Below, one piece after another: positions 24,338 to 40,878 of a DNA stretch of 40,878 nucleotides. Origin of the DNA: a virus (taxonomy: Duplodnaviria; Heunggongvirae; Uroviricota; Caudoviricetes); IMG/VR virus record IMGVR_UViG_2713896799_000014, positions 1 to 40,878 of that record; one strand, 5' to 3'. The first letter of the stretch is position 1. Every line of letters starts with the position of its first letter. Position numbers and translations under genes: made by a program. A model generated the notes under the pieces. It was not told where the DNA came from. It saw only the letters and a list, made by a program, of their open reading frames with translations, and did no database searches.

Positions 24338-24413
24338 TGGTGCTGGTTAACGGACTTGAACCGCTACCCATTCGCTTACAAGGCGACTGCTCTACCATTA
24401 GAGCTAAACCAGC
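24338..24413 (-). tRNA. Phage-encoded tRNA-Thr (anticodon UGU), hand-folded
   Basis: Minus strand: 7-bp acceptor GCTGGTT/AACCAGC, D-stem GCTC/GAGC, anticodon loop CT-TGT-AA, T-loop TTCAAGT, 3' ACCA. Confidence 0.55.
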
Positions 24414-24418
24414 ATGTT

Positions 24419-24493
24419 TGGCGGGACAGCGTGGACTCGAACCACGATAAGAAGGTTAACAGCCTTCCGTAATGACCTTTATACGACTGACCC
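24419..24493 (-). tRNA. tRNA-like gene, probable tRNA-Asn (anticodon GUU), one acceptor-stem mismatch
   Basis: Minus strand: anticodon stem GAAGG/CCTTC perfect, loop CT-GTT-AA, T-arm CGTGG-TTCGAGT-CCACG, 3' GCCA; acceptor 6 of 7 pairs. Confidence 0.45.
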
Positions 24494-35371: not shown

Positions 35372-36079
35372 ATGGATTTGAACAAATTCGATGAGCCATT
35401 CAGCCCTGAAGATATCGAATGGCGAATACAGCAAAGCGGTAAAACACGCGATGGCAAGGTGTGGGCTATGGTGCTGGCTTATGTCACGAACAGGGCAATC
35501 ATGAAACGCCTGGACGATGTTTGCGGCAAAGCAGGATGGCGCAATGAATACCGCGATATTCCCAACAACGGAGGCGTTGAATGCGGCATATCAATAAAGA
35601 TTGATTCCGAATGGGTAACCAAATGGGATGCAGCTGAAAACACGCAGGTAGAAGCCGTAAAAGGTGGTCGTTCCGGTGCAATGAAGCGCGCTGCCGTTCA
35701 GTGGGGAATCGGTCGGTATCTGTATAACCTTGAGGAAGGTTTCGCACAAACATCTCTCGACAAAAAGCAGGGATGGCACAGGGCAAAACTCAAGGATGGA
35801 ACAGGATTTTACTGGCTCCCTCCATCGCTGCCGGGCTGGGCAATCCCAGCATCAGATAACAAACCATCACCAGAAAATACCAACCAGAAATCTCCATCGG
35901 TTGACTGCGAACAAATCCTGAAAGACTTCAGCGATTATGCATCAACAGAAACTGACAAGAAAAAACTCATCGAGCGTTATCAGCGTGACTGGCAATTAAT
36001 GGCTGGCAACGAGGAGGCGCAGGCTAAATGCGTTCAGGTAATGAACATCAGAGTTAACGAACTAAAACAGGCGGCATAA
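35372..36079 (+). CDS. Rad52/Sak-family single-strand annealing protein
   Basis: 235 aa with WGIGRYLY motif typical of Rad52-like recombinases; GAGGTGA RBS; immediately precedes ssb. Confidence 0.7.
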   Translation: MDLNKFDEPFSPEDIEWRIQQSGKTRDGKVWAMVLAYVTNRAIMKRLDDVCGKAGWRNEYRDIPNNGGVECGISIKIDSEWVTKWDAAENTQVEAVKGGRSGAMKRAAVQWGIGRYLYNLEEGFAQTSLDKKQGWHRAKLKDGTGFYWLPPSLPGWAIPASDNKPSPENTNQKSPSVDCEQILKDFSDYASTETDKKKLIERYQRDWQLMAGNEEAQAKCVQVMNIRVNELKQAA

Positions 36080-36553
36080 ATGGCAAGCAGAGGCGTAAAT
36101 AAGGTGATCATTATTGGTCGCCTTGGGCATGATCCAGAAATCAGATATTCACCATCAGGAACGGCATTTGCAAACCTTACAGTTGCTACGTCAGAACAAT
36201 GGCGTGATAAGCAAACTGGAGAGCAAAAGGAGCAGACGGAGTGGCACCGCGTGGTAATGAGCGGGAAACTGGCAGAAATTGCCAGCGAATATCTGCGAAA
36301 AGGCTCTGAGGTTTATCTTGAAGGCAAATTGCGGACAAGAAAATGGCAGGATCAAAGCGGACAGGATCGGTTCACTACCGAAGTTATCGTAGGCGTTGGT
36401 GGAACCATGCAAATGCTTGGTGGAAAGCAAGGAAGCAATGAACAGTCTTCACCTCAGCGAAATAACGGCCAGCAACAAAGACAGCAATCTCAGCAGCATG
36501 GGAATCACAGCGAACCACCTATGAACTTCGACGATTCGGATATTCCGTTCTAG
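36080..36553 (+). CDS. ssb: Single-stranded DNA-binding protein SSB
   Basis: OB-fold N-terminus [23 protein letters not shown], Gly/Gln-rich linker, acidic tail ending DDSDIPF. Confidence 0.9.
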
Positions 36554-36562
36554 GAGCTGAAT

Positions 36563-37042
36563 ATGAAAATCTGCTCAAGATGCCATCAATAGAAGGAAGA
36601 AAGGGACTTTCAAATCAGAAGAGCATCCAGAGATGGATTAACTGCCGCTTGCCGGGCTTGCCTGGCTGAATACGACAAAGAACGCGCTGGATTGCCACAT
36701 CGAGTATCAGCAAGGAGAGAATATCAATCATCGGAACGCGGAAGAGAACGGTGTAACGCAGCCAAAAAGCGGTTCATTCAGAGCAACCCATGGAAAAGAA
36801 AAGCCCACATCATTGTGGGTAATTTTTTGCGCGACGGTAAGCTAATCCGACCACCAAAATGTGAGTGCTGCGGATCAGAATGTAAACCACAGGCGCACCA
36901 CTGCGACTACAGCAAACCAACCGATGTGATGTGGCTCTGCAAGTCATGTCATGTCGAGTGGCACAAACATAACAAACCTATCTACCCAGACGAGGAGCCA
37001 GTAACCCTCCCCTTCCCTCGTCACGCTATTCACGCAATTTAA
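36563..37042 (+). pseudogene. HNH-like zinc-finger nuclease gene interrupted by in-frame amber codon at codon 10
   Basis: ATG with AGGAG 7 nt upstream, then MKICSRCHQ, TAG at 36590-36592, same frame open to 37042; C-terminal HHCD...CKSCHVEWH. Confidence 0.45.
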
Positions 37043-37055
37043 TCAGGAGAAAATC

Positions 37056-37352
37056 ATGCCAGCGCCTCTGTATGGTGCGGACGACGCGCGCCGCTGTTCC
37101 GGCAATTCCGTATTGGAGGTGCTGGAAAATATCAAAAACAATTTCGATGCATTTCTTACTCTGCCACCAGAAACAAAAGCGGAACGGATGTACCGACGCG
37201 ATATACAACTCGCGCTAAAACAGGAGAAGGACCGAACAAACGAAACAGCAATGAGACCGTTGCGAAAAGCGACAATAGACAAATTCCCTGAATATATCGA
37301 CCCACGCCTGCGTAATTACCGCTCACGCTATGGCGCTATCAGTAATGACTGA
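37056..37352 (+). CDS. Hypothetical protein, 98 aa
   Basis: ORF with CAGGAGAAAA RBS in the early-left operon. Confidence 0.5.
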
Positions 37353-37362
37353 GGAATTTACC

Positions 37363-37530
37363 ATGAGAGGACTTGCATACAATCCCGGCATTCTTCCGGC
37401 AGAAATGATTATTCGCCAACGCGTAAAGACAATGCCATCGAGAGAGGAATCACTTAAGCGAAACTCGTTTCCATCAGTGAATCAGAACAAATATCTGAAT
37501 GCGATGTGGCGTAAAGGAGGCAACCAGTGA
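37363..37530 (+). CDS. Small hypothetical protein
   Basis: 55-aa ORF from MRGLAYNPG with GAGGAA RBS; stop overlaps next GTG start. Confidence 0.4.
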
Positions 37531-38171
37531 GCAACCGTTTTTACATGATGTGTTTGCGTGAAACTGTGGGTAATAACGCCTCATTCCATTGCCATAACGG
37601 CAATGGTTACAGTTCTGATATCGATCGCGCTCATGTTTACACGCTGGAAGAAGCCCTAAAAGCCTGGAATTGTGGGCGAGATATCGATCAGCCTGTTTGT
37701 GCCGATAGTGTGGATGCAATGGCTGTGTGGCACGTTGATTGCCAGTACATCCCTACAGAAAGCCTGATTGAGTCAGATTGCACTGCGTATGTAGCCTACA
37801 AAAAAGGTAGCTGGAACGGCAACGATGTTTACTGGCTTCAACACGGTGGATTGCCAACAGATGACTTCAGTAAAGCGACCATCTTTAGCGTCGCCAACAA
37901 AAACGAACCAGGAATAGTTTGGTTGCCATTTTCCATCGCCGATGCAGCAAAGCGCCGGACGTTCAATATCAATAACTTTAACCGCAGAACAATGGTTCAG
38001 GGCGCAGGTTTGGTCATGCCTGACTGGTTGAAAGAGCAGAACAGAAGAAAGAAGTCGCGAAGCGGGAAGGTGCGTTGGAATTGTCCGCATTGCGGAAAAA
38101 TCACCTGGCAGTACAGCCCATATGATTTTGAAGGCTGTAGTGATTACAACTGTGAAGGATGGCGAGAATGA
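37527..38171 (+). CDS. Hypothetical Cys-rich protein, 214 aa
   Basis: GTG start after AAAGGAGG; several Cys/His clusters incl. C-terminal CPHCG...CEGW. Confidence 0.55.
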
Positions 38172-38635
38172 CAATTGACTATCAGGCACTGCGTGAGGCG
38201 GCAGAACGTGCAACTCCAGCAATGGAACGCCTGTTAATGTTGCCAGTTGATGATGATTTGTTAAGTGAACAGGAGCTTAAAGATTACGGTGTGGATATTG
38301 ATGCGCTCAACGCCTTCAAATTTCTGACCGGACCAGAAACCGTGCTGGCGCTGCTGGATGAACGGGAAAGAAACCAGCAATACATCAAACGCCGCGACCA
38401 GGAGAACGAGGATATTGCGCTAACGGTAGGGAAACTGCGTGTTGAGCTGGAAGCCGCAGAGAAGCGGATTGCTGACATGGAGGCGCGGGAGGTTGTACTG
38501 CCGCGTGCGCACGATGTTCACCCATTAGGGCCGCAGTCGGCGAAAATTTTTTGTGAGTTTCACCGGAGTATCGTGAACAGATGCGCCGATGAGATTCGCA
38601 AGGTTGGCGTCAAAGTCAGCATCAAGGGGAATTAG
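38168..38635 (+). CDS. Ead/Ea22-like protein
   Basis: ATG overlaps upstream stop (ATGA); coiled-coil-rich sequence resembling prophage Ead/Ea22-family proteins. Confidence 0.5.
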   Translation: MTIDYQALREAAERATPAMERLLMLPVDDDLLSEQELKDYGVDIDALNAFKFLTGPETVLALLDERERNQQYIKRRDQENEDIALTVGKLRVELEAAEKRIADMEAREVVLPRAHDVHPLGPQSAKIFCEFHRSIVNRCADEIRKVGVKVSIKGN

Positions 38636-40620: not shown

Positions 40621-40677
40621 TGGCGGTTTTTTATTGCCTGATTTGCAGGTTCGATTCCCTATTCGGAGATAGCACTC

Positions 40678-40878
40678 ATGCAACACGAACTACAACCTGA
40701 TTCACTGGTTGATTTGAAATTCATCATGGCCGATACTGGCTTCGGTAAGACCTTCATCTACGACCGGATTAAGTCCGGCGACCTGCCTAAAGCCAAAGTT
40801 ATCCACGGACGAGCAAGATGGTTATATCGTGACCATTGTGAATTCAAAAATAAGCTCTTAAGCCGCGCCAATGGGTAA
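40678..40878 (+). CDS. torI: Excisionase / recombination directionality factor, AlpA family (TorI-like)
   Basis: 66 aa MQHELQPDSLVDLKFIMADTGFGKTFIYDRIKSGDLPKAKVIHGRARWLYR; matches my recollection of E. coli TorI, the KplE1 excisionase. Confidence 0.85.
   Translation: MQHELQPDSLVDLKFIMADTGFGKTFIYDRIKSGDLPKAKVIHGRARWLYRDHCEFKNKLLSRANG

Follow-up and report, generated by a model that had tools for sequence, protein, structure and literature searches.

A natural amber allele of an Sf6 gene 26-type putative nuclease gene in lambdoid prophages of Escherichia coli

In Shigella phage Sf6 the early-left recombination (Rec) module includes gene 26, a gene of 159 codons located between ssb (gene 27) and abc2 (gene 25), whose protein (AAQ12215.1 / NP_958202.1) is annotated as "endonuclease" and falls in PHROG 2340. 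According to the GenBank record of Sf6, a run of 14 residues of the gene 26 product is identical to E. coli SSB, although an SSB-like stretch is not obvious. No experimental report on nuclease activity of the Sf6 gp26 family was found in the literature searched. A comparable arrangement is known from phage ES18, where a small HNH-type gene is tightly packed with genes for a single-strand annealing protein (SAP; Erf), a single-strand binding protein (SSB) and an anti-RecBCD protein (Abc2) in the early-left operon (PMC12315714). In the same survey, 84 of 246 Enterobacteriales lambdoid Rec modules had no nuclease, and the authors describe the HNH-type genes of these modules as sporadic and possibly mobile (PMC12315714).

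Here we analyze a homologue of gene 26 that is interrupted by an amber codon. It lies in a 40,878-nucleotide stretch of DNA (IMG/VR record IMGVR_UViG_2713896799_000014), referred to below as the window. The window gene has the same ribosome-binding site (RBS) and start as Sf6 gene 26 and is identical to it at 476 of 480 nt (99.2%). Unlike the window copy, Sf6 gene 26 is intact: its codon 10 is CAG and its residue 99 is Gln. The likeness to the ES18 HNH gene is drawn from gene context, and the window copy differs from that gene in being interrupted. As a mutation, the lesion resembles the classical phage ambers lambda Sam7 and P22/L 13-am43, being a single CAG>TAG change of the kind that a Gln-inserting suppressor host can correct. 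However, the classical ambers are laboratory isolates in essential or lysis genes and were kept on suppressor hosts, whereas the window allele is natural, affects a probably non-essential gene and resides in wild E. coli prophages. With a probability of roughly 0.85, we read it as a genuine, heritable amber (Q10am) null allele of an Sf6 gene 26-family nuclease gene that is dispensable for the prophage.

A P22-like prophage at argW

The window is a slice of an E. coli chromosome that bears, at argW, a prophage of about 39.6 kb, P22-like (Lederbergvirus, Sf6/IME10-like) and mosaic in make-up. Bases 1-1068, comprising yfdC (1-933, upstream of argW) and most of argW (a tRNA-Arg(CCT) gene found by ARAGORN at 1009-1083, + strand), show 100% identity to a large number of E. 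coli chromosomes, and homology to phages IME10, Dewey and Bas106 starts at 1069, within the tRNA. The 3' 15 nt of argW, CTGCAGGGGACACCA (1069-1083, + strand), also occur as the same 15-mer between xis and int in phage Dewey, and therefore represent the attL core. An IntS-like integrase gene (1209-2402) follows downstream of argW. The prophage genes are ordered int, tailspike, ejection, head, portal, terminase, lysis, Q, nin, P/O, cro/cI, N, early-left operon and xis, with xis (40678-40878) closing the early-left operon. Because the left end is yfdC-argW-attL, the possibility that the window is a free circular phage genome was ruled out. The attR site must lie just past the window end.

An exact 16-bp direct repeat, TTGCAGGTTCGATTCC, is present at 1054-1069 and 40643-40658. 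The left copy is a segment of the argW T-arm and directly adjoins the 15-nt attL core on its 5' side. The right copy, just upstream of xis, occupies this place in the free phages IME10 and Dewey as well; since it is phage-borne at this position, it was rejected as a candidate for attR. In the phage circle, xis is thus flanked by two segments that are neighbours in the 3' half of the tRNA, an arrangement that may be the relic of an originally longer attP. Two further tRNA genes, for tRNA-Thr(TGT) and tRNA-Asn(GTT), are located at 24338-24493 on the - strand, with the Q-like antiterminator gene on one side and the lysis cassette on the other, and tRNA genes are found at the equivalent position in Stx and other lambdoid phages. 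We also considered whether this is a generally decaying prophage. This was ruled out, as the large structural genes are all full-length, and tblastn of relatives' ORFs against the window revealed no stop within any other real gene in the regions that the relatives cover.

All genes of the Rec module are on the + strand. The first encodes an erf-type (Rad52/Rad22 family) single-strand annealing protein (35372-36079; PF04098 and the Sf6/RefSeq annotation) and is followed by the phage ssb gene (36080-36553), whose TAG stop (36551-36553) lies 10 nt 5' of the interrupted gene. The Shine-Dalgarno sequence AGGAG (36552-36556) is separated from the ATG at 36563 by a 6-nt spacer and has an anti-SD duplex energy of -6.5 kcal/mol. 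From this native start, only codons 1-9 (MKICSRCHQ; 36563-36589), which hold C4 and C7, would be translated before the amber TAG at codon 10 (36590-36592). The rest of the gene, codons 11-159 and TAA (36593-37042), would stay untranslated and contains no further lesion. The abc2 gene (37056-37352; PF11043) begins 13 nt past the stop of the nuclease gene, is intact and has its own RBS.

Past the TAG, the frame remains open for 149 codons, up to the TAA at 37040-37042. A stop-free run of this length has a chance of about 8e-4 in random sequence and, together with family matches that extend across the stop, this indicates that the frame is not fortuitous. The only later in-frame ATG is codon 123, within the HNH core. 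An earlier note on this DNA had described the RBS and ATG at 36563, the nine-residue peptide, the TAG, the long open frame beyond it and the lack of an ATG from which the bulk of the protein could restart; the sequence bears out each of these points.

The interrupted gene and its family

By sequence similarity and gene order, the interrupted gene is a homologue of Sf6 gene 26 for a protein of about 159 aa. It lies in the early-left Rec module, whose erf-ssb-gene-abc2 order is shared by Sf6, Bas106 and E. coli prophages. When the stop is read as Gln, the repaired protein matches PHROG 2340 ("endonuclease") over residues 1-143 (E=2.8e-47) and matches database proteins across the stop with E=1.8e-104. 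There are 77 database relatives of the repaired protein, with identity down to ~35%. In the copies of Sf6, Bas106 and E. coli prophages codon 10 is CAG, and apart from this they are 98-99% identical to the window. The uninterrupted frame of ~159 codons that marks the PHROG 2340 family is broken in the window copy by the TAG at codon 10. Genes for 159-aa proteins called in two other loci (L077 and L080) were considered as family members and rejected, as their products are unrelated.

Intact alleles of the gene differ mostly at silent sites, with 53 synonymous and 26 nonsynonymous variants among 37 fetched alleles, and pN/pS is 0.09 (Nei-Gojobori, 32 distinct intact alleles). This low ratio argues that the gene is real and normally under strong purifying selection. 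It should also be noted that the intact 159-codon gp26 ORF (for example, L003:1664-2143 and L044:2984-3463) has no annotation in any of the ~96 RefSeq complete E. coli genomes in which it occurs, nor in the GenBank/ENA assemblies examined; it is called only in author-annotated phage records (Sf6, Bas106). For an ORF with a strong RBS, a pN/pS as low as 0.09 and relatives at 35% identity, this looks like a systematic gene-calling gap.

Two family alignments, of 27 and 58 sequences, were used to assess conservation. Each of the residues C4, C7, C30 and C33 is kept in 90% or more of the sequences, which include relatives down to ~35% identity, showing that the N-terminus is part of the protein. 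In the alignments and the AlphaFold model, these residues make up an N-terminal Cys4 zinc ribbon (36572-36661, + strand), which the TAG divides. Residues C100, C103, H112, H113 and Y116 are invariant in both alignments, and D115, W124, C126, H130, W133 and H134 recur in 90% of sequences or more, giving the core pattern CxxC...HHxDY...D..WLCxxCH..WH across codons 100-134. The further Cys/His clusters seen in the earlier reading of the sequence are real, being conserved in both the 27- and the 58-sequence alignment.

The AlphaFold model, built on the 58-sequence alignment, has a pLDDT of 92.9 and consists of a small N-terminal ribbon (beta strands 16-18 and 26-30, pLDDT 98), three helices and a beta-beta-alpha unit at 110-136. 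The signature residues of HNH/His-Me nucleases are present, namely the catalytic His ending strand 1, the distal metal-binding His and the flanking CxxC zinc ligands. Conserved columns, the modelled beta-beta-alpha unit and fold matches place a putative HNH-type (His-Me finger) core at codons 100-134 (36860-36964, + strand), and the protein may be comparable to the zinc-ribbon HNH / His-Me finger nucleases Gme HNH (4H9D) and Hpy99I (3FC3) and to T4 endonuclease VII-like phage proteins. Curated HNH models (Pfam, NCBIfam) matched neither the repaired protein nor any of the 58 family members, and a profile search of PDB sequences gave no match. An HNH classification by sequence models was therefore unsupported. 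From the conserved residues and the modelled fold, we infer that the product is a zinc-ribbon plus HNH-type (His-Me finger) nuclease, with predicted activity.

Related loci suggest that the gene is accessory. In five prophages without the gene (L054, L057, L059, L062 and L063), only its last 46 nt are left before abc2 (2442-2487), and in Bas106, L047 and L048 an exonuclease gene is inserted beside the nuclease gene. Two relatives (P0007 and P0031) are frameshifted, and an IMG/VR homologue (L040, 2261-2740) is truncated by a premature stop that arose independently, codon 145 having changed from GAA to TAA beyond the HNH core. In other relatives, the HNH C-terminus is joined to an SSB N-terminus at a common "IVG" tripeptide (P0011 and P0014) or fused to a DnaQ-like PF16473 3'-5' exonuclease (P0027 and P0052). 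These chimeras and the gene-less loci are the mark of a recombination-prone mosaic junction. Since the gene is accessory, and missing or broken in many related phages, its loss appears to be tolerated by the phage.

Rarity and spread of the TAG allele

At codon 10, the window differs from the intact homologues by one C>T at 36590 (CAG>TAG). As every intact homologue has CAG here, the window carries a single C>T transition. This is a single disabling change set against orthologues under purifying selection, as expected of a null allele caused by a point mutation, and it supports the earlier proposal of a recent nonsense pseudogene. The comparison with homologues that had been suggested as a check gave the same picture, since related prophage copies have CAG at codon 10. 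The case in which homologues naturally start 3' of the TAG was not borne out, as the family keeps the N-terminal CxxC.

To determine how common the TAG is, we searched by megablast with a 55-nt query in which base 28 was the variable one, so that no 28-mer seed could leave it out. The TAG query had no matches in 5,426 complete E. coli genomes, compared to 96 genomes for the CAG control, and none in 50,697 phage records. Exact 25-mers in IMG/VR gave 0 TAG and 37 CAG matches, metagenome contigs searched with Y at the variable base gave 0 TAG and 10 CAG, and no TAG allele was detected among GTDB species representatives. Combining these unbiased scans, the TAG is present in 0 of ~150 homologues. 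Loci L005-L041 were found by a CAG-containing pattern, so their 37/37 CAG is by construction and stands outside the unbiased evidence. The TAG allele is rare.

The idea of a TAG private to the window had to be dropped, because contigs selected for coding for proteins identical to the window's Ssb, Abc2 and 214-aa product included carriers of the same allele. All 480 nt of it, TAG and K99 included, recur unchanged in three further samples (GCA_025988865.1, GCA_036679865.1 and ENA ERZ27233550). GCA_025988865.1 is 100% identical to the window across 6.3 kb and, going by this identity, is probably the source genome or a clone of it. GCA_036679865.1 carries the TAG allele in two prophages, at ~2.51 Mb (L060/L082) and ~4.55 Mb (L051/L061/L083), and ERZ27233550, a metagenome assembly, carries it on an 86.5-kb contig. 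The flanks of both GCA_036679865.1 copies and of ERZ27233550 have 22-61 mismatches to the window, with other ssb/erf alleles and other downstream ea genes. Mismatch maps define a minimal identical haplotype block of at least 1.85 kb (36503-38349, + strand) with 100% identity among all TAG carriers. This block contains the end of ssb, the TAG nuclease gene, abc2, a DUF2737 gene and the 214-aa gene, and the flanks diverge on either side.

A second change, Q99K (CAA>AAA; C>A at 36857), is fully linked to the TAG. Codon 99 (36857-36859, + strand) is AAA (Lys) in 9/9 TAG loci and in 0/54 CAG loci, all of which have CAA (Gln). The fetched loci comprise 54 CAG+CAA and 9 TAG+AAA, and the nine TAG loci correspond to four genomic places and one haplotype. 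Residue 99 directly precedes the first Cys of the HNH zinc site and varies across the family, so Q99K is probably neutral. The TAG allele has a single origin; it arose once, on a K99 haplotype, and homologous recombination then carried the block into several prophage backgrounds, including two co-resident prophages of one genome. The two lambdoid prophages of GCA_036679865.1 have an identical TAG block and differ in erf, ssb and upstream genes, suggesting gene conversion or recombination between them.

Consequences of the amber codon

A sequencing or assembly error over a true CAG had been raised as a possibility, and it is scarcely credible. The difference is one base only, and the TAG is missing from the 5,426 complete E. 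coli genomes, the 50,697 phage records, IMG/VR and the GTDB representatives, as would be expected of an error. However, the same base, with the linked Q99K, is present at two loci of a different NCBI assembly and in an ENA metagenome assembly. Systematic sequencing errors typically occur at homopolymers and Dam/Dcm motifs, and the TAG site is outside both. Because the identical allele occurs in assemblies with diverged flanks (22-61 mismatches), a sequencing error is excluded. Given a real TAG, the protein might still be made by leaky read-through or amber suppression, with a Gln-inserting suppressor (supE-like glnV/glnX) or near-cognate tRNA-Gln restoring the wild-type protein at reduced dosage. 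We regard this as improbable, while recognizing that several features fit it: CAG>TAG is the one change for which inserted Gln regenerates the wild-type sequence, the RBS and entire downstream frame are intact, the allele persists across several prophage backgrounds, and the base after the TAG is A. The UAG-A context is reportedly comparatively leaky and well suppressed, according to the context studies of Bossi and of Miller/Albertini. Against this, the tRNAs detected by ARAGORN in the window are Arg-CCT, Thr-TGT and Asn-GTT only, with no CUA anticodon. TAG also ends ssb and about eight other prophage genes, so that efficient suppression would extend those proteins as well. Nor is the stop conserved among homologues, as it would be for programmed read-through or recoding: the fetched loci comprise 54 CAG and 9 TAG, the latter all of one haplotype, and the stop is missing from the ~150 unbiased homologues. 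The open state of the frame beyond the stop carries no information on expression, since the 1.85-kb block is free of substitutions throughout. Genome-wide TAG recoding was ruled out, as there is no suppressor tRNA in the window and TAG ends several prophage genes.

Translation could instead re-initiate past the TAG, at the ATC of codon 18 or the TTG of codon 44, giving an N-truncated protein that keeps the HNH domain. A purine-rich SD-like sequence, AAGGAAGAAAGGGA, does follow the TAG (anti-SD -5.0 kcal/mol), 5' of the in-frame ATC at 36614, and in rare relatives (P0012, P0025, P0011 and P0014) the C-terminal domain follows an N-terminus of unrelated sequence. However, ATG, GTG and TTG are absent between the TAG and codon 44, making the non-canonical ATC the sole SD-backed candidate, and initiation at ATC is very inefficient in E. 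coli. The TTG of codon 44 (36692-36694, + strand) is the earliest canonical in-frame restart and would give a product of 116 aa; it has no Shine-Dalgarno sequence, with an anti-SD energy of -0.9 kcal/mol compared to -6.5 for the native start. Any restart product would be without C4 and C7 of the Cys4 ribbon kept in at least 90% of the family. Moreover, no gene caller predicts a gene here in any carrier, and no 116-aa TTG-start remnant is on record as a called protein. We consider re-initiation very unlikely, and the option of amber suppression or a non-ATG restart, which the earlier note had left standing, is unsupported by these data. More doubtful still is a reading in which the Rec-module nuclease is potentially toxic and the amber allele limits its dosage or ties it to certain hosts, the protein being made only by low-level Gln read-through of UAG-A or in natural E. 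coli hosts with amber suppressors, and in which recombination spread the allele between prophages because such restraint is advantageous.

Our data favor the amber allele being a natural knockout. Ribosomes loading at the strong native RBS would terminate after nine residues, and the allele would be a functional null, or at most leaky at trace level. The retention of the strong RBS and of 149 codons with no second lesion would be compatible with continued expression as well. However, the lack of a second lesion is equally expected for a young mutation, because the 1.85-kb block has zero substitutions. Survival of the allele through several recombination events suggests that it is not strongly deleterious, although this does not in itself prove a null. 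Loss of function of the TAG allele is the likely outcome, given the position of the stop, and the many related phages in which the gene is absent or disrupted suggest that the prophage can dispense with it.

The finding is of an ordinary kind, a segregating knockout allele and not a recoding signal, and its significance beyond annotation is small. For annotation, the locus is best described as a pseudogene (nonsense allele) of an Sf6 gp26-type nuclease gene and not as a recoded gene. As a natural knockout, the allele offers a comparison of TAG and CAG prophages that could show what the HNH-type nuclease contributes to Erf-SSB-Abc2 modules. In addition, the 1.85-kb block, shared by the carriers and set in flanks that have diverged, provides a clean example on a small scale of the spread of an allele by recombination, among both co-resident and unrelated lambdoid prophages.
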